Shown here one piece after another: positions 1,201 to 16,989 of a DNA stretch of 20,000 bases; within the stretch, counting starts at the first letter, position 1; each line of letters starts with the position of its first letter. The notes beneath the pieces are model-generated. The model was not told the DNA's origin and ran no database searches. It was given only the letters and a program-made list of their open reading frames with translations. Source of the DNA: Atractiella rhizophila. Lineage: Eukaryota. Location of the stretch: positions 46,623 through 66,622 of the forward strand of contig MU271430.1 of the NCBI GenBank assembly GCA_021432655.1, given 5' to 3'. The position numbers and the translations under genes are program-made.

Positions 1201-3263
1201 AATTTAACGCAGCCGTGTCGCCTCTGGAGCGACAGTCGGAATCGAGCCCCTAACCTTTAATCTGACAACTACTTCAATTTGTCTCAAGACCGAGGTAACC
1301 CGGAGCGAAACGCAACATTCATGAATGTGACAGACTCTGGCTTTCTGTTCTAAACTGGCAACCATCAAACCACAGCAGCATTCCTCTTTGATTTGCCCAC
1401 ATGTTGATGCACCTTGTGACAGTGGTCCTAGATCGATCCAAACAAATGGACAAACGGTTACAAGGGCACTGCGATTGATCTGACATTGACATTGCTTGAA
1501 GTGCCGCATTCAGTCGACAAGCTTCGAAGGTCAAAGACTTTTGTGATCAATGGACATGCCAACATTGTTACCCTGTCATCCTGTTTGTGCCTAATTTTCT
1601 GCGAAACGAGAAACACCCATAAATATGCCAAACAACACAAAGCAAAACCAATAAAAATCATTTGAAGATCTCATTCACTTCTCAGAACGCGTGGCTCATC
1701 CTTAGAACTGGAACTAGAACCGACCCTTTGACAACGACTCCAACTTAATATCTAGGGGTTCGGATCGAAACCTATTAACCCTCGGCATACTGTTCTCGAC
1801 TGACACTAAATGAGCTGGTGACAGGCATGAGCCTTATTCACTCTCTGACTTATCTACTCGGTCCCAAAACTCATAAGATCGAACTATTAAAAATCCAATG
1901 GACGACAATTGCGTGATCTCTTGGATCAGTGACAAAACAACTGGATGGAAGGGAATATCAGATTATGGGCATTAAAATGCTCGGTTAGAACAATAAGGGT
2001 AATCTCAAACAACACAAACATTTTCTGACCATTTTCCGTACCGTACCGCTGGGTGGACGAGTTTAAATTGAGGCAGTTTCAGAACCGGCGTCGCACTCGA
2101 CCGCACCTCTCTGTCGATCGTGAGGGTCCTACCACATTATGTCCGTCGCTCTAATAAACCCTCTCTCCTACTTTCTTCTCCTGCACACATCGCCATGGTG
2201 TTACACTTCTGTTATTCTCTTCTCTCCCCTGCTTTTGATAACTATCGTCACTTAATACGTGACCTGTGCGTGAGTCAACAGTGATGCTCGCACTGATGGC
2301 CTAAGGAGAGTCACCGAAGGATGGACACTTGTGCAAAGACGTTACGGGTGTTACGGGCCATCGGTCGTGGTGTAGCCAGGTATGTCATTTCTTTACTTTA
2401 TGGCTGGTTTCTGTGAGCAGGAGATGGATCGATTCTGTCGACGAAGTTAGGGTGAATGGTGAATGGGCAATCCCGAAGAAGCACCAGCATCTGGCTTCTA
2501 AGCACCCTTTTTCTTAACTTCGTTCTACAACCGTTACTTATCTATCCTTTCTCGTAACAGTTTCTCTCCCTTCGGGGTTTGAAATACTTAGTCAGATGGA
2601 TTGAGGTGTGACAATGCAGGTAGATGAGGCATGAGGTGTTGGCTTTTGGAGAAGGATAGAGGACAACACATCTAAACATCGGCGAGCATTACCTCTCTTG
2701 TCGTCCTTGACGTCGCTTTGGAGAATTTTGTGCTCCCCGTCGCCTTCGTCTTTGAACAGTGCTTCAATGCCTTGCGTGGTCTCGTTTAGTTGAATAGTAC
2801 CCGCAGTTCTCCTTGGATTTCGCCCGATGCGCTGAAGGCGAATGTCCGTCCTGGAAAACAGCCTATCATTGACTGTTGGGAGCCTACAACGGCTACTTTG
2901 ATGGAACTACTGCAATGCTACATTCACCCTGTTGCCTTCATTTCCGGGTAACCACGACAAGTGAAACCACGCTTTTACCTCAGCTTACACTTTTGGTACA
3001 AGAACGGGGATGTCAGCGATCATGACAGCCGGAGAGGACAGGAGATCTGGCACGGTCTCGCCAGACCCGACGATCAAAAAGGACTGGATACAAAGTGGAA
3101 CCCAGCCGATCGGGTTGTTTGCCAAAGATGCTTCGCCCAAGCTTGCGCTTGGGGAACATGATGGATGACCATAACGGCATGACCTGGCTTCTCCCCAGCG
3201 GTTTCTCGTACACAAGTTGAGTGTTTCGAGGAGAAGCGAGCGCTCAATCCGAGCAAGCAGGAT

Positions 3264-4391
3264 ATGGGAGACTCCCATGCGTATACGTCTTCTGACCCAG
3301 AAGAACCAGAAGCAACAAACTTCAACTTCCCCCCAAGCATCTATCAAAATCAGCCTCCAGTTGTTTTATCATCCAACTTCGAGGCTGGACCCCAATGGAA
3401 CCCTTCTAGTCACTCGGTCATTCCCCATGGCTCCTTGCATCAGTCACCGAATCGAGACTTCCGACCACCCATGGCAGCCGATTTAACCCCCATCCCAAAC
3501 CACCTACGATTTCCTTGGACCTTTAACTCCCCGATTTCTTATCAGAACCGTCAACCTAACCATCCTATTTATGCTCCTCTCCCACCGCCATTCTCCCCCA
3601 TGGCAGTTAGACTAACTCATCAAACTGGCAACGTGCATGGCGCGTCTGCTAGTTTGATCTCCACGTCTCCCTACAACCTTTTAGAGACGTTCCTATCTGA
3701 TTCCCCGAATGCGAATCCTAGGTTTGCTCGGCTCTCTGTCGTGCATCCAACTCTTAACTATGACCACATGGTCATGAATCCTACCCCGTTCGAAACCCTA
3801 CCCAACGACTTTGGCAGCACGGGTATGTCTTCCTGTCGATATCTTGTTTGGGCCGATCGCAACTTGTCTATAGGAATGAATGCTGCGGCAGCTCCCAACG
3901 AAGCTGGTGTGGTTGTGGACAGAGAGTTTGAGAAGATCCTGGCAGGTTCAGCCGTGGAGTCTACCAACCTACATAGGCAAAACAGTACGCTGCCTTCTCA
4001 GCTGATTACTTTATGGTCAGATGTGTATCATGTAGCTGTCAAATCTCAGAAAACACTGGAGATCACAACCCTTAAGCGAACCTTCATCCTCTATTTTTCA
4101 AGAGAAGAAAAAAGGATTTGGGTGTGGGAAGAACTCCTGTTTCATGAACTTGACCCAGTCCAGGAAGGCTTAGACGGGCCAGTCATCTTTGGACCCAGTA
4201 CTAGTCCAGCATATGTGGAGGTTACTTTGGACGGAAAGGTGTGTTTACCTTCCTCGGCGAATCACAGAGAGCGAAACAGTGCGCGACCTGACTCAGCTGC
4301 TTCCTGTCTGATCTATGCAACAGATTTTCTAAGGGGCCAATTAAAATCAATCGGTAGGCTGCTCAGCACCATTTATTATTTCTCGAACTAA
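3264..4391 (+). CDS. Hypothetical protein with a Pro/Ser/Asn-rich N-half and a possibly PH-like C-terminal segment; probably spliced near the 3' end
   Basis: 375-aa ORF. The segment LEITTLKRTFILYFSREEKRIWVWEELL resembles the last strands and Trp-bearing helix of a PH domain. Candidate donors at ~4239 (GTGTGT) and ~4353 (GTAGGC). Confidence 0.55.
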   Translation: MGDSHAYTSSDPEEPEATNFNFPPSIYQNQPPVVLSSNFEAGPQWNPSSHSVIPHGSLHQSPNRDFRPPMAADLTPIPNHLRFPWTFNSPISYQNRQPNHPIYAPLPPPFSPMAVRLTHQTGNVHGASASLISTSPYNLLETFLSDSPNANPRFARLSVVHPTLNYDHMVMNPTPFETLPNDFGSTGMSSCRYLVWADRNLSIGMNAAAAPNEAGVVVDREFEKILAGSAVESTNLHRQNSTLPSQLITLWSDVYHVAVKSQKTLEITTLKRTFILYFSREEKRIWVWEELLFHELDPVQEGLDGPVIFGPSTSPAYVEVTLDGKVCLPSSANHRERNSARPDSAASCLIYATDFLRGQLKSIGRLLSTIYYFSN

Positions 4392-5050: not shown

Positions 5051-5466
5051 TTAGGGTTCAACCCTGCCACTGTCAGGAATGAGATCCTGGCTGAATCCTT
5101 GCCTCCTGGCTGCCCTGGGTACAACCCTGCCTCTGTCAGGAACAAGATCCTGGCTACTTCCTTGCCTCCTTGCGGCCCAGGGTACAACCCTACCTCTGTC
5201 AGGAACAAGATCCTGGGTACATCCTTGCCTCTTAGGCACCCAGGGTACGACCCTGATGCTGTCGGGAGCAGGATCCCATGTACATCCTTGCCTCCTCGCT
5301 GCCTAGGGTACAACCCTGCCTGTGTCAGGAACAGGATCCTGGCTGTATCCTTGCCTCCTAGGCACCCACGGTGCGACCCTGCCTCTAATAAAAACAGCAT
5401 CATCACAAAACTGTTGGCTCTTAGTCAACCAGGGTAGAACCCTGCCACAGATAGGAATAACAATCC
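5051..5466 (+). repeat. 63-bp tandem repeat, ~6.5 units
   Basis: Units start GGGTWCAACCCTG at 5054, 5117, 5180, 5243, 5306, 5369 and 5432, an exact 63-bp period. In one frame it reads as a 21-aa repeat (GYNPASVRNKILATSLPPxxP). Confidence 0.95.
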
Positions 5467-5712
5467 AGTCAAAATGTCATGTACGTATAAACACCTGCAG
5501 GCACAGGCAATGTCCTCTCTAAGACATCTTAAAACACTTATATATTGAAATCCTTGCTTTATTGGAGAGCTTTGGTTCATATGTGGCATATATGTCCAAT
5601 TGAACAAGGTACATTCAAAGTTGCAAAATTAATTTATAGTAGTTTAGAAATCTGTTCTCTGTACGTTATTAACGATAAGTGCAATTTTCGCAAAACTGCA
5701 CAGGATCAATAG

Positions 5713-5874
5713 GTTATCGACATCAGGTAGAGAGGGGTCTCAGGGGTGCAATTTTGTTGAAAGTGTCCCATGTCGATGGGTTATCAACACCTCGTGTAGA
5801 GGGCTCTGAGGGGTGCAATTTTGTTGAAAGTGGCCCATGTCGATAGATTATCGACATCAGGTAGAGAGGGGTCT
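5713..5874 (+). repeat. 67-bp tandem repeat, 2.4 units, third unit cut off by the 246-bp element
   Basis: RTTATCRACA...GGGGTGCAATTTTGTTGAAAGTG at 5713, 5780 and 5847. The third unit stops after GAGGGGTCT. Confidence 0.9.
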
Positions 5875-6362
5875 ACTACTATTCCTTCGCGACGGAACTG
5901 TTCCGTCAGTCAAATTTGGCTGGGGAACGGAGTTAGGGTCAGGGCCAGGGTGAGTCCCGTCAGCCTAGTTGCGAGGCTCTGACTGACGGAACTAACCTGA
6001 CGGGACGGAACGCACCGTTGAGTCCCGTCAGCTCGGACGCGACAGCCAAAATGTTTCGCGAGGTGGGTTCAGCCCCGAAGCAAACTCGCTCAAACATGCG
6101 AGGTTCATCGCGAGGGGCCTACTACTATTCCTTCGCGACGGAACTGTTCCGTCAGTCAAATTTGGCTGGGGAACAGAGTTAGGGTCAGGGCCAGGGTGAG
6201 TCCCGTCAGCCTAGTTGCGAGGCTCTGACTGACGGAACTAACCTGACGGGACGGAACGCACGGTTGAGTCCCGTCAGCTCGGACGCGACGGCCAAAATGG
6301 TTCGCGAGGTGGGATCAGCCCCGAAGCGAACTTGCTCAAACATGCGAGGTTCGTCGCGAGGG
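5873..6362 (+). repeat. 246-bp direct tandem duplication rich in CCGTCAG/CTGACGG direct and inverted motifs; possible transposon end
   Basis: ACTACTATTCCTTCGCGACGG starts at 5875 and 6121. The copies differ at 8 internal positions. Each has a perfect 13-bp inverted pair (GTTCCGTCAGTCA / TGACTGACGGAAC) and TTAGGGTCAGGGCCAGGG. Confidence 0.92.
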
Positions 6363-6699
6363 CGCCAAGTTCGCTACCAGTCGCGAAGTGGGCACTTCGG
6401 GTCGCTGGCTGGCTGCGACGTGTGAAGTGCCTTCCAGTCGCGAAAGGTCAAGTTTGGTTCAGCGATGGGTTGCAACGTGCGAAGCGCCCCTGTAGTTGCC
6501 AGGGAGCAGATGTGCAAGAGAGCAAACTCACGGGACAACAAACTCGCAAGAGAGCAAACTCGCGAGACGGCCAACTCAGGAGGCAGCAAACTACCGGGCT
6601 GAACGCAAACGCTAGGTTGCAAACTCACGAGACAGCAACAAACTCGCGAGATTGGCTTTGCATCTGCACTCCCAGTTTTGCTGCAGTGAACAGGATGTT

Positions 6700-7600
6700 A
6701 CCAGAGCGAGCCAAGCTTTGCAAGAGCGAAGAGATTTGGCCCAAGCAAGTTGGCTGCATCCCAGCGAACTGCACTTCACCTGAGCAAGCCAAGGTGCACT
6801 GGAGCGAACTGCACCCCGCTGGAGCCAGCCAGGCTTCGCAGGAGCAAACTGCACTTCGCTGGAGCGAGCCAGACTTCACTGAAGCGAACTGGCTTCGCCC
6901 AAGCAAGCCTGACTTTGCTCCAGCGAACTGCAGTTCGCCCGAGTAGTCTGCCTTCGCAGGAGCGAGCCTGGCCTTGCTGGAGCGAACTGACTTCGTCCCA
7001 GCAAGTCTGGCTTCGCTAGAGGGAACTGCACTTCGCTAGAGCGAGCTGGGCTTCACAGGAGCGAACTGCACCGAGCGAACTGCACTTCGTTGAAGCGAAC
7101 CGGTCTTCGCAGGAGCGAACTGCACTTCGCCGGAGCGAGCCAGGCTTCGCAAGGAGCAAACTGACCTTCCCAGCAAGTCTGGCTTCGCTAGAGCGAACTG
7201 CACTTCGTTGAAGCGAACTGGCTTCGCCGAAGCAAGTCTGACTTTGCTCCAGCGAACTGCAGTTCGCCGGAGTGAGTCTGCCTTCGCAGGAGTGAGCCTG
7301 GCCTTGCTGGAGCGAATGCACTTCGCCCGGGCAAGTCTGGCTTGCTTCACTCCAGCAAACTGCTCTTTTCCCAGGCAAGCCAGACCTTGTTGGAGCCAAC
7401 TGACTTCGCCCCAGCGAGTCTGCGTTTGCTGGGGCGAACAGGAAGTAGTCTCGCGTCGCTTGAGTAGCCCTGGCTTCATTGAAGTGACAGGAGGTCGCGA
7501 GAGCGAACTGACTTAGTCCCAGCGAGCCTGTCTTTGTTGGAGTGAACTTAACTTCATGGCAACAAACATACCTTTGCTGAAGCGAGCTAGGCTTCGCAAG
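6700..7600. repeat. Array of ~21-bp quasi-palindromic modules (GCGAA/GCGAG-variable core-TTCGC) with a higher-order repeat
   Basis: Modules such as GAGCGAACTGCACTTCGC and GAGCGAGCCAGGCTTCGC. The perfect 16-bp palindrome GCGAACTGCAGTTCGC is at 6923 and 7252. A >100-bp block at 6881 recurs at 7210. Confidence 0.9.
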
Positions 7601-7774
7601 AGTGAACCTGAACCAGAGCCCCCCAAAGTGATCCCAAGCCCCTGAGGCTCTACTTCCCCGAAGGGGCTCTCAGAAAGTCCTTATAAGGCTGACTCCTCTC
7701 AGGATCCCCCAAGAAATGCACCGGTAAGTGTTTGTCCGAAATTGTCCCCTGCTGTGTTTTCGTTGCTCTGCTGG

Positions 7775-8307
7775 CCGAAGGTGAAGTGCTCACTTGGAGG
7801 ATCTGAATCCTCAAACAGCACTCGGTCCTGCCGTTTGCTGTGGGATTGATCAAGGCGACCTATGCGTCCACTTCTTTCTCCCAAGGCGAGCCAAAGGTCG
7901 GGCGCTCAAAATGGATTCGGGTTTTGAAGGTGGGTTCTTGGTCTTCAGAGCATCTTGTGGCACTTTGTATATATCTTACTGGCAGAAAGCAAAGTGTGTG
8001 CTTAGGAGACAAAACCTGAACATGTACTTGTTCCTGAGATTTGCTGTGGGATCGATCAAGGCGACCTAAGCGTCCACTTCTTTCTCCCATGGTAAAAGGA
8101 AGGTCAAGTGCTCAAGAGGTGTTTGGGTGTCAGAAGTGGGCAGGCACTGTTCAGGCAGTTTGCATGAATAACTAAAGGCTCAGGATACTCAGCACATCCA
8201 CAGGCTTAGATGGTACTTGTGGTGGCTTAGACCTCAGAGGTTATCCTATGCTCAAGATTTTGCTATTGGGATCGATCAAGGCGATCTATGCGTCCACTTC
8301 TTTCTCC
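7775..8307 (+). repeat. Degenerate ~210-bp repeat with a conserved 48-bp core, 3 copies
   Basis: TTTGCTGTGGGATYGATCAAGGCGACCTAWGCGTCCACTTCTTTCTCC at 7834, 8040 and 8259 (the third has two further substitutions); spacing 206 and 219 bp. Confidence 0.85.
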
Positions 8308-8377
8308 TATAGCTATGACTGGGTAGGGAGCTGAAAGTACTTTGTGCCTGCACCTTGTGACGTCTGAGAGCAGGTGA

Positions 8378-9058
8378 TTTTTGCTTCAGAGACAGACACA
8401 TTCCTTTTCAGACACTGGTTCGCGTGTTGCCTCGCGAGTGCTGTGGGATGTTGTGTGGATGTTGGTTTGCATGTCGTTTCGCGAGTGTTGTCGGATGGGA
8501 TGTGTTGGTGTTGGTTTCGCTGCAAAGTGGCTTGGGTGCCGCCTTGCGACTGTTGTCCGGCGAGTTGTGGTGTTGGTTTTTTGTTGCAAAGCCGGCTCGG
8601 GCGCCACCTCGTGAGATGACTGTCTTGGGTGTTGGTTTCGTTGCAATGTGGCTCTGGTGCCGAGGAGTGGTTCGCATGTAGCCCTCGCGAGTGCTGTCGG
8701 CTGGTTTGTGTTGGTGTTGGTTCGTTGCAAAGTGGCTCGAATGCTGCCTCGCGAGTGCTGTCGGCTGGTTTGTGTAGGTGTTTGGTTTCGTTGCAAAGTG
8801 TCTCGGGTGCCACCTCGCGAGATGAGTGTTAGTTTCGTAGCCTCGCGAGTGCTGTCGGGTGGGTGAGTTGGTGTTTGGTTTCGTTGCAAAGTGTCTCGGG
8901 TGCCACCTCCCGAGATGAGTGGTCGTTTTGTAGCCTCGCAAGTGCTGTCGGCTGTTGGTTCATTGCAAAGTGGCTCGGGCGCTGCCTCGCGAGTGCTGTC
9001 GGGTGGGTTGGTTGGTTTTGGTTTTCTTGCAAACTGGCTCGGGTGCTGCCTCACGAGA
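8378..9058 (+). repeat. Modular block A (GT-rich modules containing CCTCGCGAG)
   Basis: Starts TTTTTGCTTCAGAGACAGACACATTCC. Recurrent GTTGGTTTCGTTGCAAAGTGGCTCGGGTGCCACCTCGCGAG and CCTCGCGAGTGCTGTCGG. Direct repeat of 11639-12438. Confidence 0.92.
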
Positions 9059-9490
9059 ATGCAAACTCGCGAGAGAGCGAACTCGTGACGAGTTTGCAAC
9101 AGTCCTGCTGCGAAGGGTTGCTGACGAACGAACAAAATTGCAACTCTCGCGAAACAAAGATAATTCTCGCCAGCTGCGCGAACACGATCGCGAGCAGTCG
9201 CGACTCAAAAACGTTCGCGAGCTCTCGCGAGGAGAACATTTGGGCAAGCTGCCGCGAATGGTTGGGTCTCACGAAAAGAAGTTAAGTCCAAGCTCTCGTG
9301 AGCCTAGAATGATTGCAAGTCTCGCTCAAGCGAGGCGAGCATGATTGCAACCTCTCGCGAAGCGAAAACGTTTGCATGCTTCGCGAGGAGAGCACTCAAC
9401 CAAGCTGCCACCAAGCGAACACTACAGTGGCCTGCTGAAGAAATATGCAATGCAAAACGAAACACGACATGAGAAAGCTCGTGCGAGCAT
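9059..9490. repeat. A-rich region with dispersed TCGCGA modules
   Basis: CAAACTCGCGAGA and CTCTCGCGA motifs recur. Similar motifs occur at ~6520-6650. Confidence 0.6.
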
Positions 9491-9519
9491 TTGCTTTGGC
9501 TCGCCAACCCAAATCCTCG

Positions 9520-11560
9520 CCTCCTCTGTGTGTATTTTTCCTTTGCTTTTTTTTTCATGTTCGCTCACTCTTATTACACATGATACGTAGTGATATCTAA
9601 CACTCAGACCTACCACCCACCACCCTCACATCTAAAATACGAAGAAGAACGGTGATGCAATGGGGAAGTGCATTTTTGATATATATGGGTGCGTATTTTG
9701 TCCTCCGCTTTTTTTGATATTCACCCACCCTCAATACCACTTATACGTCGTCGAAGCTACACCTCAGACCTGTCATTCGCGCCACTTACGTCTAAAATAA
9801 GATTGATAATGGCGAAGCAATGGGGGATTGCAACTTTCGATATATCTGAGGTTAGTATTTTGTCCTCCGCTTTTTTCAATATTCATTAATTCTCAATACA
9901 CATTATATCCTCTTGAAGCTACATATCAGGCGTCTCATTCGCGCTACTTACGTCTAAAATACCATGGATAATGGCGAAGCAATATGGAATTGCATTTTTG
10001 CATGTATATGAGGTGTGTATGTTGACCTGCGCTTTTTTTGATATTCACTCATTCTCGAAACACATTATACGACGTCAAAGCGACATCATGTGCCTCCCAT
10101 TTGCGCCACTCATGTCTAAAGTCCGATGCATAATGGCGAAGCAACGGTTAATTGTGATTTTTGACATGTGTGAGGTGCGTATTTCGTCCTCCGCTTTTTT
10201 AATATTCGCTCATTCTTATTAAGAATTATACGTCGTTTAAGCTACATCTTGGGCCTCTCATTTAAGCCACTCAAGTCTAAAATACGAGGGATAATGGCGA
10301 AGTAATGAGCAATTGCGATTGTGAGATATATGGGGTCCATATTTTGAACTCCGCTTTTTTTGATATCCACTAATTCCCATTAGGAATTATACGTCGTTAA
10401 AGCTAAATATTAGGCGTCTTACTTGCGCTACTCACGTCAGAAATACGATGGATAATGGCTAAGCAATGAGGATTCGCGATTTTTGATATATACGAGGTGC
10501 GTATTTTGAACTCCGCTTTTTTAATATTCACTCATTCTCAATACAAATTATATGTCATTGAAGCTACATCTCGGGCCTCCGATTCACGCCACTCACGTCC
10601 AAAATCCCACGGATAATGTCGAAGTAATGAGCAATTGCAATTTTTGAGGTATGAGAGGTGCGTATTTTGTACTCCGCTTTTTCCAATATTCACTCATTCT
10701 CAATACGCATTACATGTCGTTAAACCTACGTCTCAGGACTCCAATTCGCGCTACTTACGTCGAAAATACGATGGATAATGACGAAGCAATGAAGAATTGC
10801 GATTTTGATGTGTGTGAGGTGCGTATTTCGTCCTCCGCTTTTTTAATATTCACTCATTCTTATTAAGAATTATACGTCGTTGTAGCTACATCTCGGGCCT
10901 CTCATTTGCGCCACTCACGTCTAAAATACGAGTGATAATGGCGAAGTAATGAGCAATTGCAATTTTTGACATATATGAGGTCCGTATTATCAACTCCGCT
11001 TTTTTTGATATTCACTCATTCTTATTAAGAATTATACGTCGTTGTAGCTGGCATTCGGCGCTCCCATTTGCGTGACTCACGCCCGAAATGCGATGGATAA
11101 TGGCGAAGAAACGGGGAATCGCAATTTTTGATATATCTCAGGTGCGTATTTATCCTCCGCTTTTTTAATATTCACTCATTATGAATACACATTATATGTC
11201 ATTGTAGCTACATATAAGGCCTCCCATTCGCGCCACTCACGTCTACAATACCATGGATAATGGCGAAGCGATGAGGAATTGCGATTTTTGATATATCTGA
11301 GGTGCATATTTTGAACTCCGCGTTTTTTAATATTCACTCATTCGTATTAAGAATTATACGTCGTTGTAGCTGGCCCTCAGCCCTTGCGTTCGCCCTACTC
11401 ACGCCTCAAATGTGATGGATAATGGTGAAGTAATAGCGAATTGTGTTTTTGATATATGAAGATGCATCTTTTTGCTCCGCTTTTTTTACGTTCACTCGTC
11501 ATTATTACATCTTATACAATCCAATAACAACATTACATGTGTTACAATGCGACCTAACTG
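9520..11560 (+). repeat. AT-rich ~161-bp satellite, 12-13 units
   Basis: CTCCGC(T)n anchor at 9703, 9865, 10027 (variant), 10189, 10349, 10511, 10672, 10833, 10994, 11155, 11316 and 11475 (period 159-162), plus a degenerate unit at ~9541. No sustained ORF. Confidence 0.97.
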
Positions 11561-11638
11561 GAAAACACGTTGTGTATTGATGTCAGAGGTGCAATTACAA
11601 TTCAAGTTTCCACATACCTATCTCTTTTATTTTGTTGT

Positions 11639-12438
11639 TTTTTGCTTCAGAGACAGACACATTCCTTTTCAGACACTGGTTCGCATGTTGCCTCGCGAGT
11701 GCTCTGGGATGTTGTGTGGATGTTGGTTTGCATGTCGCTTCGCGAGTGTTGTCGGATGGGATGTGTTGGTGTTGGTTTCGCTGCAAAGTCGCTTGGGTGC
11801 CGCCTCGCGACTGCTGTCTGGCGAGTTGTGGTGTTGGTTTTGTTGCAAACCGGCTCGGGCGCCACCTCGCGAGATGACTGTCTTGGTGTTGGTTTCGTTG
11901 CAATGTGGCTCGGGTGCCGAGGAGTGGTTCGCATGTAGCCTCGCGAGTGCTGTCGGCAGGTTTGTGTTAGTCTTGTTCGTTGCAAAGTGGCTCGGGTGTT
12001 GCCTTGCGAGTGCTGTCGGGTGGGTGAGTTGGTGTTGGTTTTTCTTGCAAACTGGCTCGGGTGCCACCTCGCGAGATGAGGGTTGGTTTCGTAGCCTTGC
12101 GAGTGCTGTCGGCTGGTTTGTGTCGGTGTTGGTTCGTTGCAAAGTGGCTCGGGCGCTGTCTCGCGAGTGCTGTCAGGTGGGTGACTTGGTGTTGGTTTCG
12201 TGGCAAAGTGGCTCGGATGCCACCTCGCGAGATGAGTGTAGTCTTGGTTTCGTTGAAAAGTGGCTCGGGTGCCACCTCGCGAGATGCGTGTGTTGGTGTC
12301 GGTTTCGTTGCAAACTGGCTTGGGTGCTGCCTCGCGAGGGCTATCGGGTGAGTTGGTGTTGGTTTCGTTGTAAAATGGCTCGGATGCCACCTCGCGAGAT
12401 GAGTATGGTGTTGTTTTGTTGAAAAGTGGCTCGGGTAC
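11639..12438 (+). repeat. Modular block A', second direct copy of block A
   Basis: Same start as 8378 (offset 3261 bp). Near-colinear for ~350-400 bp, then the same modules in different number and order. Confidence 0.92.
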
Positions 12439-12459
12439 CAGTTCGTGAAGTGGTTCGTA

Positions 12460-13312
12460 CTTCGTTTCGCGAGACCTGCCCGGCCGTTCACTTAGCCCAA
12501 GCTGCCTGAGTTTTCGCTTTGTGTTACCTCATAAGTGTTTGCCTTCGCGAGAGTTGCCTTGATGTTCGCTTCGCGAGACATGCCGGTATCTTCGCTTCGT
12601 GAGAGCTGCCGCCTTATTCGCTTCGCAACTGCGGCCTGACGGTTCGCCTCGCGAGTGCTGCTCGGGTGTTCGCTTCGCGAGAGGTGCCTTATCATTCCCC
12701 TTATCGTTCACTTCGTGAGACCTGCTTGGTTGTTGGCTTCGCGAGAGCTGCCTGAGTGGTCGCTTCGCAAGACCTGTCTGCCGGTTGGCGTCGCGAGAGG
12801 TGCCTTATCGTTCGCTTCGTGAGACCTCCTTTGTTGTTGGCTTCGCGTGAGCCACCTTATCGTTCGCTTTGCGAGACCTGTCTGGCTGTTTAGGGTTGCT
12901 TTGCGAGACGTTGCAATTCGCTTCGCCTTAGCTGCCTGAGTCTCCCCTTCGCGTTTGCTCCCGAGTGTTCCCCTCGCGAGAGTTGCGTCGCTGTTAGCTT
13001 CGCAAGACCTGCCTGAATGTTTGCTTCGTGAGAGCTGCCGGGCTATTCGGTTCGCGAGAGCCGCCTGGGTGGTCGCTTCGCGAGTCCTGCTTAGGTCTTC
13101 GCTTGGCGAGACATCGCGAGACATGCCTGGCTGTTCGCTTCATGAGGTGCCTAAGTGTTCGCTCAGGCAGAGCTTCCTGAGGTTTCGCTTCACAAGAGGT
13201 GTGTGAAGTTTGCGTCACGAGACCTGCTCGGCTCTTCACTTCGCGAGAGCTGCCTGAGTCTTCGCTTTGTGAGTGCTGCCTGAGAGGTTGTAGCTGTTTT
13301 GCTTCGCCTTAG
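12460..13312 (+). repeat. Array of ~22-25-bp modules TTCGCTTCGCGAGA(GCTGCC/CCTGC)
   Basis: Many variants of GTTCGCTTCGCGAGA followed by a short variable segment. Confidence 0.85.
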
Positions 13313-13741: not shown

Positions 13742-13968
13742 AATGAAAATGTGCTTTCGTCCCCGCTCCCCTCACACCATGCCCATTTTAGTCAGCATCT
13801 GGCAGAGGACCATAAAAGGGCCTCTAAACGCACTGTGTCTCCCAAATGAAAGCATGCAAGGACCAGGCAAGAACATGCACAGATCAGCGCGGGAAGAGCT
13901 GAAAGAGCTTTGGGCTACTAAGGGTACTCTAGGGTTCAACCCTGGCTCTTTCAGGAATGAGATCCAGG

Positions 13969-13982: not shown

Positions 13983-14007
13983 NNNNNNNNNNNNNNNNNN
14001 NNNNNNN
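13983..14007. other. Assembly gap (25 N)
   Basis: Run of 25 N. Confidence 1.
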
Positions 14008-14570
14008 GCTGCAAAAATTGTCGGACGGGACTGTGCAAAGCCCTGCTCTCTTGATTTAAACAGGGCTGTGTGAAGGTCAATCCTTTTATATTGACAGGAT
14101 TGACAGGACGTTGACTTCTGTTACTTCGTTCATTGCTGGTGCATTTGGAATTTGGAGCGAATTTACGCTTGACTTCACTTTCGCATTCTTCCTCCTACAA
14201 GTTAGCTTTAAAGCTCGACCTGGAAAAGTTCCTTTCCAGCTAGGGTTCGCCTCAAAGTTGCAACCATGCCGAGGTCTTCCTTTTGCGCTATTTATCAGAA
14301 GGTTATGTATGATGATCACTTTCATTGGCCTATCTATAATCCTCTGTACGTAGAAGACAACCGTACTGCAGTGAGGACAAACATTTCCCACTCGCCGACA
14401 ACAGAAATGATACCTCTGTCCAATAACCAATTCTTTCACTTCAGCGTTGCAGCACCTGTTCCGTCAATTCAGGCTGAGTCCGCACAATGCCCTACCGTTT
14501 TTTTCGAAGGCACGGTCGACGTCCACAGACCGATGGTGTCTCGTATCCGCCACATGAAATCATGGTCTCC

Positions 14571-15705
14571 ATGGACGATCCTTCGACGACGACACTCGAC
14601 ATCACTTCCTCCCCAAGGGTTAGGGTTCCCACCTTCCGAAGGAGAGGCTATGGTGGTGAATGGAGGGTTGGGGATTTTGGATATTGCACCGAGCTTGGTA
14701 CCTTCAGCTTTTCGCAAAACGTGCAGGACTTTTTAGGGCCAGAAGACGAAAGGCTGGATTTTCCTTTGAGAGAGGTCGCGTTGAATGCAGAATCTCCGAT
14801 TGCCAAAGGAAGCTTCACTGTCACGAGCGCTGCGGTGGATGCAGGCCCTCCAGTGTAGGTCCTCGCTTCGGCGCTTCAAGAGGATATTATTTAATGGACG
14901 AGCGTAGCCCAGGCGGCGCTACTTTTGCGGTCAATTACTCCAGCCAATCCCAAGGAGGAGCCCTTCTTGCCACAACATCAGATGCTCTTCGATTTGCCGT
15001 CACTCACCAAGGTATCGGTGTTGACTACTTCAAACGGTATTTCAAAACAGTGTTGGAAGAAGATGCACGAGCCGGGCACTGTCCGAATGGTAAGAGGGAA
15101 CTCTGTATGATCATCGGCGTTGTCAAAACCTTCGGTTGGCTTCGAGCTGTATTCGGTCAATGCGGTGGTAGCTTTGGAATCAACGTTGGGGCGCACCCAG
15201 CCGGATTCCAAGTGGGTCGTGATTACGGTGCGATTTCAGGAGTCCACGTGCAACATGGCCCCAGGGTGCAACGTATGTTCACAGTGATGATCAGAACTTT
15301 ATTAATGGCAATGATTATTAGGAAGCGGCGTCCTTGGTAGCGACGTGGGGGACCAGACACTATTTATCACTCGAATTATGTGTAAACATGCGGGAATTAC
15401 ACAACTTGGTTGTCTCAAAGGAGGAGGGGAGTCAGGTTGGCCTTCCCCCGCAGATCCAGCAGATGAAAGCATGGAATCCGTCTTTTGTGATGGATCAAAT
15501 GAAACTGTGATATGCTCTCACTCTGCTGCTATCAAGCAGCATTAACTTGTTGTAGGGGTGCGACCCTTTGAGCGTGCTCCTTGAGGCTATGTTGACTGTG
15601 AGTATTCCGTATGTTCAAAAAAGATTCCTCATTCCTCTGAAGTTACGCCCTGCTGCCGAATTTGCTATTGCGTCTGACATCGACTTGTGCACCCTGTGCG
15701 AAAAG
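14571..15705 (+). CDS. Spliced gene for a putative gasdermin-like beta-pore-forming protein (basidiomycete GD[VF]GY...DQ.[IL]FI...DPL..LL...AIASD.DL type); 5' and 3' ends uncertain
   Basis: Introns 14855-14907, 15273-15321, 15507-15555 and 15598-15642 (all GT-AG, 45-53 nt) join five exons in one frame: ...GEWRVGDFGYCTELGTFSFSQNV...KGSFTVTSAAVDAGPPVPGGATFAVNYSSQSQGGALLATTSDA...ELCMIIGVVKTFGWLRAVFGQCGGSFGINVGAHPAGFQVGRDYGAISGVHVQHGP...DQTLFITRI...GCDPLSVLLEAMLTLRPAAEFAIASDIDLCTLCEK. Next donor GTGCGT at 15706. The gene model is well supported; the fold assignment is inference from recalled motifs. Confidence 0.7.
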
Positions 15706-15892
15706 GTGCGTTGCTCCACGTCCAAGCAGGTCTCTATTTAAGCTGGCTAGTCGAATTGGAGCCTCAAATCTGGCGAATGGAATGTTCAAAAAAGCGGTAA
15801 AACTGTTACAAGGTTGTGGGGACTGCATCAATGAAGAAGCTGTCGGTACATATCAGTCTCTCTTTGGACATCGAACTCACTTTGTCTGATAG

Positions 15893-16280
15893 GACTCACT
15901 CTCTCCGCTTCTCCACTCATTCTTCGGAGTCCGTTCTTGAAGGAATTGATCTACAAACTGTGACACACGAAGGAGGCAACCACCTGCCGATATCGTTCAC
16001 AAATGTGAAGCAGCCCGACGATGCGGAGGAGCCTTCTGTCGTTGGTGAATACGGGGACAATCAGGGAATGACCGAAGGCGGCGCCGCCCTCTCATTCGCA
16101 GGGGACTGTGAGGACAATGCCTTCTTGTCTACTGTCGTATTGGGAGGAAGACATGATAAGGCCAGCATGCCGAGAGACACACCTCAATTTCATGGAGACA
16201 GCCAGCTTCTGGAGTCGGAAAATGAGTCGATTCGATTGCACGAGTTGCCTACAGCGTCAGATATCGGAGATGACCTGTTG
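15893..16280 (+). CDS. Acidic low-complexity exon, probably a C-terminal extension of the preceding gene
   Basis: Lies within ORF 15816-16364, bounded by a TAG acceptor (15892) and a GTAAGT donor (16281). I could not join its frame to the upstream exons without assuming an indel or another splice site. Confidence 0.4.
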
Positions 16281-16989
16281 GTAAGTCCACTTCATTCTCT
16301 CATTTTCCTGCATTTGCTAATATATCTCAAGCAATCTTCGCTGCTCCTGAAATTCTTGATGTAGCTTAACGGTCAGAAAACTGGAATTCAGGTGATGAAA
16401 TAAAGCTTACAAGCACACGTTCTTGCTATTACGTGTTTATCTTCCTCTCAGCGTGACAAGTCATGCCGTTTCGTGATGCCGCAAACAGTCTCATCAAGCA
16501 AAAAGTCTCGATAGAGAATGAATAGTTCACTCTGCCTGGGGAGAACTCAAGTGCATACATCCATCCCGACCTATTAGTGCCATGCACATACAGCAGTCAC
16601 CCCCGGTCCAAACCTGGATGAGCACGAGATTCAAGTTGATGCGGAAGGAATTTGACATTTCCTGGTTCAGAGGGAATGCACAGGATCCCTTGAAAGATGG
16701 GCAGAGGGGTCATATTGATGCACGGGGTTAACTCCTTGGGATCGGGGTTCTTCACCTGAAGGTAAGTCATCCACCTCACTCCTTTTTGATACATTCCTCT
16801 TGAATAATTTATTTCTTACTGGTACCAAAGGTGAAATATTGTTGCTGCTTAACCAGTGGCCTGTGAACACGCATATATCTATTCATGGCTTCGCTTCTCC
16901 TATACCCTATGAGGGACCACATCTGCAAACAGCGATGTTCTTATTTCTCGTGTGATGAAGAAGTTGCTAATCACGATGTTACTGAAAGA

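Follow-up and report, generated by a model that had tools for sequence, protein, structure and literature searches.

The 20,000-nt stretch analysed here, from the genome of the root fungus Atractiella rhizophila (contig MU271430.1, positions 46,623 to 66,622, forward strand; hereafter the window, numbered from its first letter) carries a multi-exon gene that the original prediction, made from the letters alone, had described as a hidden five-exon gene at 14571-15705 encoding a candidate gasdermin-like pore-forming protein. We find that this gene model is right in its four introns yet incomplete, and that the gasdermin interpretation is plausible and draws on a single type of computational evidence. 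Nor is the gene hidden: two NCBI protein models already cover it. These are P0001 (KAH8916551.1, 486 aa, "hypothetical protein BT69DRAFT_1355560", Atractiella rhizophila) and P0012 (KAH8920231.1, 603 aa), which belong to the same 90% cluster. Because P0012 maps letter for letter on the window, the window is the P0012 locus, and P0001 is a near-identical second copy on another contig. The largest exon (14909-15271) is 100% identical to P0001, its sole match at an expectation value (E) of 0.001 or below among 812 candidates, and both models run past 15705 to a stop codon at 16362-16364. P0012 has introns 2-4 in common with P0001 but begins with two further upstream exons and uses an implausible 26-nt intron 1. 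The features of the locus are listed below; related proteins carry numbers up to P0012, and contigs from public sequencing runs carry the labels X1, X2 and X5.

14266-14462, + strand: upstream coding stretch with the conserved N-terminal motif of the family (…IYQKVMYDDHFHWPIYNPLY…), absent from P0001, from P0012 and from the originally predicted model
14463-14561, + strand: stretch linking the upstream frame to that of exon 1, with a one-base offset; GT..AG pairs enumerated
14562-14854, + strand: exon 1 as in P0001 (MVSMDD…GPPV); GGEWRVGDFGYC, from 14649, is the start of the N-terminal domain
14855-14907, + strand: intron 1, 53 nt, GTAGGT..TAG, the P0001 junction; the alternative 26-nt intron of P0012 adds 9 residues not in the paralogs
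14908-15272, + strand: exon 2, the core of the N-terminal domain, with invariant alignment columns
15273-15321, + strand: intron 2, 49 nt, GTATGT..TAG, in both P0001 and P0012
15322-15506, + strand: exon 3, with the end of the N-terminal domain (VGDQTLFITRIMCKH) and then a Gly/Pro/Ser/acidic linker from about 15411
15507-15555, + strand: intron 3, 49 nt, GTGATA..TAG, in P0001 and P0012; retained in the X1 metatranscriptome contig
15556-15597, + strand: exon 4, start of a small helical "domain B" (GCDPLSVLLEAMLT), whose helices are predicted with a local distance difference test score (pLDDT) of 63-84
15598-15642, + strand: intron 4, 45 nt, GTGAGT..AAG, in frame and open, called by homology; in P0001 and P0012
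15643-15705, + strand: exon 5 (LRPAAEFAIASDIDLCTLCEK), in P0001 and P0012; the originally predicted model stops at 15705
15706-15750, + strand: intron 5, 45 nt, GTGCGT..TAG, spliced out in the X5 contig
15751-15845, + strand: exon 6, with the final helix of domain B; its A-run (15788-15793) is one base longer than in the X5 contig
15846-15892, + strand: intron 6, 47 nt, GTACAT..TAG; the X5 contig joins across it
15893-16280, + strand: exon 7, an acidic tail with no Pfam match; the CT run around 15899-15906 is two bases longer than in the X5 contig
16281-16331, + strand: intron 7, 51 nt, GTAAGT..AAG; the X5 contig joins across it
16332-16364, + strand: exon 8 (…QSSLLLKFLM), closed by a stop codon (16362-16364)

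The four short GT-AG introns proposed to join separate open reading frames (ORFs) into one frame are borne out: they are identical to the introns of P0001, three of the four recur in P0012, and the product obtained by splicing out introns 1-4 equals residues 4-316 of P0001 exactly. Paralogs align colinearly over all four junctions in tblastn searches, including that of intron 4, which is both in frame and open and therefore needs homology to be called. At that position P0004 (residues 333-375, spanning 15562-15705) leaves a 15-residue gap, and paralogs read LLEAMLTLRP… without the 15 residues that an unspliced intron 4 would add. The sequence motifs on which the gasdermin idea was founded, two hairpin-like segments and the string LCMIIGVVKT, are likewise present where they had been placed. 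FTVTSAAVDAGPPV|PGGATFAVNYSSQSQ lies at 14814-14953, the first strand of putative hairpin 1 starting at 14814 in exon 1 and the second running to 14953 in exon 2. Exon 2 also holds an invariant YFK (15026-15034), LCMIIGVVKT at 15101-15130 with the conserved CMIxGxxK at 15104-15127, and putative hairpin 2 at 15167-15229, the sequence of which is GSFGINVGAHPAGFQVGRDYG.

Both ends of the predicted gene, in contrast to its introns, need revision. Beyond 15705 there are three further introns before the stop at 16362-16364, so that the gene has more than five exons, and this is confirmed by a 696-nt X5 contig that covers exons 5-8 and is spliced over 15706-15750, 15846-15892 and 16281-16331. The 3' half of the gene is thus transcribed and processed. 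The public sequencing runs, all with small shares (0.06-0.20), lend the gene model partial support. Direct RNA evidence for the four originally proposed junctions is thin: one X2 contig stops exactly at 14854, the X5 contig begins 2 letters before 15643, and a contig at 15499-15743 is unspliced. The latter, an X1 rhizosphere metatranscriptome contig with one mismatch, contains intron 4 whole, together with 8 bases from the 3' end of intron 3 and 38 from the 5' end of intron 5; it derives from RNA that had not been spliced or from carried-over DNA, and it places A. rhizophila or a very close relative in that rhizosphere sample. A separate 1,159-nt contig (X5, record 4) matches the window over only 36 bases (14652-14687) and continues into letters that encode GNGTFRFSRN of P0004, and at least one other family member therefore appears to be transcribed.

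The predicted start at ATG 14571, which is the second ATG of exon 1, is probably wrong, because a paralog-conserved N-terminal motif is encoded upstream at 14266-14397. In tblastn searches residues 4-45 of P0002 match 14272-14397 (E 1.6e-10), and the interval 14290-14373 is matched by residues 8-31 of P0009 (E 1e-7), by P0003 (E 6.6e-6) and by P0004 (E 1.1e-5). The motif lies within an ORF at 14212-14736, and a contig from an RNA library spans 14245-14418 in this region. Its frame is one base off that of exon 1, and the 14463-14561 junction between the two contains a run of seven T at 14498-14504. A candidate GT..AG intron of 47 nt at 14463-14509 shares its acceptor with P0012, whose exon starts at 14510; no transcript across 14463-14561 is present among the contigs from the public runs. 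The P0012 model itself starts with exons at 13779-13934 and 14099-14245, which flank a 25-N gap at 13983-14007. This start omits the motif at 14266-14397 and hence looks like a gene-calling artefact.

These frame problems raise the question of whether the window holds an intact gene. Compared with both the X5 contig and P0001, the window is one base longer in its A-run (15788-15793) and two bases longer in its CT run (around 15899-15906), and its frame as it stands meets a TGA at 15829-15831, between the two runs, whose extra bases total 3. Either the assembly is wrong at these 1 + 2 bases or the window copy carries a compensated double frameshift; P0012 evades the TGA through a different intron and thereby loses the last helix of domain B. 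The window copy may accordingly be damaged, with its N-terminal motif out of frame and extra bases in exons 6 and 7. It is quite possible, if on the doubtful side, that we are looking at a decaying duplicate (a pseudogene or defective allele) and that the sister locus encoding P0001 is the working, expressed gene. Decay would account for the additional bases relative to the transcript contig and P0001, for the in-frame TGA and for the displaced N-terminal motif, and would sit well with a P0012 model that stays open only via a 26-nt intron and odd upstream exons and with the several fragmentary models within the family. All three problems, however, lie in or beside simple runs (A6, the CT repeat and T7) that are error-prone in draft assemblies, and the window does contain a 25-N gap. 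Moreover, the two extra stretches sum to 3 bases, the remaining coding sequence is identical to that of P0001, and the N-terminal offset could be a 47-nt intron.

The protein belongs to a family that, on sequence comparisons, is specific to Atractiella, modular and multi-copy. When 1.84 billion representatives were searched by phmmer with P0001, 10 proteins, the query among them, reached E ≤ 0.001, all of them from A. rhizophila; with P0003 and P0012 added, 12 of 12 family proteins seen come from this species. A profile of the N-terminal domain built from six members (A3) found, in 5.8 billion proteins, nothing beyond 2 family members among 5,314 candidates, and none of 594 pattern matches in JGI metagenome contigs was confirmed as belonging to the family. 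The suggestion of a large, mostly unannotated basidiomycete family finds no support at the level of sequence, where every match among the 1.84 billion representatives is from A. rhizophila, although the ESM Atlas nonetheless lists unnamed Basidiomycota clusters with a similar predicted fold.

In the alignments, family members start with an N-terminal domain (about 250 residues), which a linker joins to a C-terminal part. The N-terminal domain combines the motif IYxxxMYDxxxHWPIYNPxY, behind which most paralogs carry a long low-complexity insert, with a beta-rich core of about 220 residues that contains the invariant YFK and CMIxGxxK and leads into the Gly/Pro/Ser linker. Domain B, of about 75 residues, is helical (DPLxVLLEAML…AIASDxDL…EWTxQKAxxLLQ). 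The region after it varies: P0003 and P0006 have an RNase III-like segment below the Pfam cut-off, P0010 has a C-terminal TPR_12 match (37.2 bits against a cut-off of 30.1), P0002, P0005 and P0007 share an unnamed beta-rich domain, and P0001 and P0012 end in the acidic tail. P0001 and P0007 are 31% identical in the family alignment, and several of the models are fragments. Multiple copies in one species, partly fragmentary and with swapped C-termini, make the whole look like a fast-evolving cell-death or immunity family. Three members, P0009, P0006 and P0004, lie on one 145,873-nt contig. P0009 (KAH8927902.1) and P0006 (KAH8927901.1), which have adjacent accessions, correspond to the front and back half of a P0003-like protein and probably derive from a single gene that a frameshift or the gene calling has divided.

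The argument for a gasdermin fold comes from the ESM Atlas. When searched by features, residues 1-260 of P0001 and 1-255 of P0007 have as nearest neighbours unnamed fungal clusters of 247, 266 and 274 aa (score 0.95-0.96). Among clusters that have a name, PF26164 Bact_GSDM (0.86 and 0.88) and PF04598 Gasdermin (0.82 and 0.83) come closest, feature scores below 0.9 serving as leads only. When searched by structure, the Atlas model of P0007 (residues 1-255) reaches template modelling (TM) scores, by query, of 0.72-0.73 with Basidiomycota hypothetical proteins of 415 and 532 aa, 0.65 with a Basidiomycota WD40 protein (801 aa), 0.64/0.63 with a 261-aa Bacteroidota protein, and 0.43-0.46 with gasdermin-C, pejvakin and two bacterial gasdermin (bGSDM) clusters, the last at 0.44-0.46. 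Gasdermins account for 4 of the 9 family sets among the 30 structural neighbours nearest to this model in 7.7 million clusters, and it is unlikely that several independent gasdermin clusters would appear there by chance. In addition, a conserved beta-amphipathic signal is strongest at residues 183-190, the site proposed for hairpin 2, and moderate at 86-92, and the layout seen in the alignments, an N-terminal domain of about 250 residues followed by linker and C-terminal part, is compatible with gasdermins. On these predictions we consider a gasdermin-like fold of the N-terminal domain somewhat more probable than its absence, and for a gasdermin-like executioner overall we judge the modelled evidence to be in balance. 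The gasdermin idea thus has genuine support, by Atlas features and structure, though from a single source, and no match at the sequence level.

Several results weigh against this assignment. No Pfam gasdermin family is matched by P0001 or the six A3 members (scanned to E 10), by the exon translations (E 1) or by the other paralogs up to P0011 (E 0.01-0.1). PADLOC gave no match, profile searches of PDB chain sequences reached at best E 0.16 and E 1.1, and the phmmer search of 1.84 billion representatives returned Atractiella proteins only and no gasdermin. These sequence negatives do not exclude distant kinship, because RCD-1 itself was found only by profile-profile comparison. The positive evidence, on the other side, derives entirely from one protein language model; the P0007 Atlas model is weak overall (predicted TM 0.49, pLDDT 0.44), its TM scores to named gasdermins stay below 0.5, and an unrelated TamB cluster reaches 0.41. 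Two AlphaFold2 models have a mean pLDDT of 38.5 and 41.2 and resolve only domain B, as three helices. A predicted complex of the N-terminal domain (24-250) with domain B (278-356) scored 0.02 against a mark of 0.34, the partner being poorly folded, and this score counts neither for nor against the assignment. Each proposed hairpin strand is short, at about 8-10 residues, and the amphipathic pattern is not specific to gasdermins. No protease family occurs, at E ≤ 0.001, among the 99 stop-to-stop window ORFs of at least 70 aa, which cover 14.2 kb upstream and 3.6 kb downstream and which short exons could escape. Finally, Dataset S3 of Clavé et al. (PMC8851545) gives a gasdermin count of zero in 27 of 27 Agaricomycotina assemblies.

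Bacterial genomes gave nothing further. The A3 profile reached a best per-genome E of 0.0014 in 401 Bacteroidota genomes, which is chance level, and none of 101 ORFs beside 30 caspase-family loci matches a gasdermin. Two 261-aa ORFs beside such loci have no PDB relative, and these, together with a third, look like non-coding frames and were set aside.

An alternative that we consider unlikely, and yet far from negligible, is that we are dealing with a lineage-specific, fast-evolving Atractiella family whose beta-rich N-terminal domain has nothing to do with pores, the gasdermin likeness being a false lead from a low-confidence model. That every alignment-based search lacks a gasdermin signal, that TM scores of 0.43-0.46 to named gasdermins compare with 0.41 for unrelated TamB, that feature scores of 0.82-0.88 fall within the lead-only range, that AlphaFold2 yields no fold and that the window ORFs include no nearby protease gene all speak for this alternative. 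It accommodates less readily the convergence of two paralogs at only 31% identity on the same gasdermin clusters by features, the appearance of independent animal and bacterial gasdermin clusters among the 30 nearest structures of 7.7 million clusters, and a domain size and N-domain/linker/C-part layout that suit gasdermins. A TamB neighbour at TM 0.41, and the fact that amphipathic beta segments are not specific to gasdermins, might suggest that the N-terminal domain is instead a beta-rich module of another kind that binds membranes or lipids, for instance a sheet resembling TamB/AsmA or a different beta-pore former. We consider this very improbable, because this one TamB row stands against four gasdermin rows and because the nearest named clusters by features are gasdermin families only.

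Returning to the gasdermin reading, the closest comparison is with the ascomycete proteins HET-Q1 (Podospora anserina) and RCD-1 (Neurospora crassa). Like these, the Atractiella proteins would reside in the cytosol and have a beta-rich domain some 250 residues long, and they are multi-copy and variable within genomes; the resemblance in predicted fold comes via the ESM Atlas only. A C-terminal part follows the putative pore domain, as in HET-Q1, where according to passages of PMC8851545 a protease removes it. Unlike HET-Q1 and RCD-1, to which no sequence similarity was detected, the Atractiella family has an extra N-terminal motif, in most paralogs with a long disordered insert, and a conserved helical domain B with variable C-terminal domains. 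It also comes from Pucciniomycotina, whereas the published surveys consulted mainly concern Ascomycota. At least one gasdermin is recorded in 1,117 of 1,321 Ascomycota assemblies (PMC8851545, Dataset S3), and passages of PMC7414189 describe fungal gasdermins as recognisable by HHpred at about 95% probability. No basidiomycete gasdermin is named in the titles, abstracts and passages searched.

Genomic context differs as well. Passages of PMC8851545 report a protease gene within 10 kb in 80% of 1,884 het-Q1 homologs, and passages of Johnson et al. (10.1101/2021.06.07.447441) have 40 of 52 fungal gasdermins adjoining a protease gene. Unlike HET-Q1 clusters, the window ORFs include no S8 or CHAT protease gene, as is also the case for the neighbourhoods of 20% of het-Q1 homologs. 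In the same fungal gasdermin literature (passages of PMC8851545 and 10.1101/2021.06.07.447441), TPR or WD40 repeats belong to the protease.

The bGSDM family (PF26164) is the nearest named cluster by features (0.86 and 0.88) and has a similar domain length. In contrast, bGSDMs are described in passages of 10.1101/2021.06.07.447441 as stand-alone proteins of ~260 aa that end in a short inhibitory peptide; most of them carry a palmitoylated cysteine at the N-terminus and are encoded beside a caspase-like protease gene. None of these features is seen here. Animal gasdermins (PF04598) share the arrangement of a putative pore-forming N-terminal domain, flexible linker and C-terminal part, and the structural neighbours include gasdermin-C and pejvakin clusters at TM 0.43-0.46. 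The Pfam match is absent, however, and the C-terminal part here is a small 3-helix domain plus variable modules, whereas the animal repressor domain is helical and comprises roughly 200 residues. HeLo/HELL-type fungal NOD-like receptors (NLRs) also place a putative N-terminal killing domain before variable, sometimes repeat-type C-termini, for which the TPR of P0010 and the WD40 Atlas neighbour offer parallels. Pfam scans of all family members nevertheless find neither NACHT nor NB-ARC, and the Atractiella N-terminal domain is predicted to be beta-rich and not a helical bundle. As far as is known, the fungal and bacterial gasdermins that have been characterised are all under the control of a partner protease.

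If the N-terminal domain is a highly diverged pore-forming domain of gasdermin-like type, a proposition whose prospects we judge to be even, a working mechanism can be outlined by analogy with gasdermins. The protein would lie idle in the cytosol, its C-terminal part keeping the N-terminal domain shut, until cleavage of the linker or a signal reaching the variable C-terminal domain freed it. The freed domain would then oligomerise on a membrane, and its two amphipathic beta-hairpins (in P0001, approximately residues 85-113 and 185-205) would insert, leading to cell death. What computational tools contribute to this scheme is the domain layout and the likeness in predicted fold alone; by analogy we infer autoinhibition, trigger, pore formation and a part in non-self recognition, and likewise any role in allorecognition or immunity. 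The TPR fused in P0010 and the WD40 protein among the structural neighbours suggest, at low confidence, a one-protein layout in which sensing and killing are combined. More speculatively still, and on present evidence doubtfully, basidiomycetes might own an unannotated gasdermin-like branch of single "sense-and-kill" proteins, composed of the N-terminal domain, domain B as adaptor and sensor domains (TPR, WD40 or RNase III-like) and having no partner protease, of which Atractiella would provide the first sequence-defined example.

The repeat-rich setting assigned to the gene is evident from tandem arrays that fill the upstream region 5053-13284. A satellite-like array of a 162-nt unit (11.6 copies, 76% matches, with additional periods of 322 and 484) occupies 9625-11488 in AT-rich DNA (GC about 0.40), and further arrays with periods of 20 to 246 nt lie at 5053-5446, 5866-6362, 6763-7326, 8683-8954 and 11677-13284, the 246-nt unit being present in 2 copies at 96%. 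These arrays yield long spurious ORFs on both strands, and their sole Pfam match, HTH_Tnp_ISL3 at 5054-5302, scores 23.4 bits, below the cut-off of 27.4. An open frame of 402 aa on the + strand at 3183-4391 has no Pfam match and may be another orphan gene.

Should the gasdermin interpretation prove wrong, the locus would represent one more orphan family in a repeat-rich region with poor gene models. If it is correct, gasdermin-type cell death would reach an early-branching basidiomycete lineage, the Pucciniomycotina, and would be controlled there in a different way, by sensor-like domains fused in cis, with no protease gene next door. The family would then also be a test case for the detection, by language-model and structure searches, of gasdermins that profile methods have missed.

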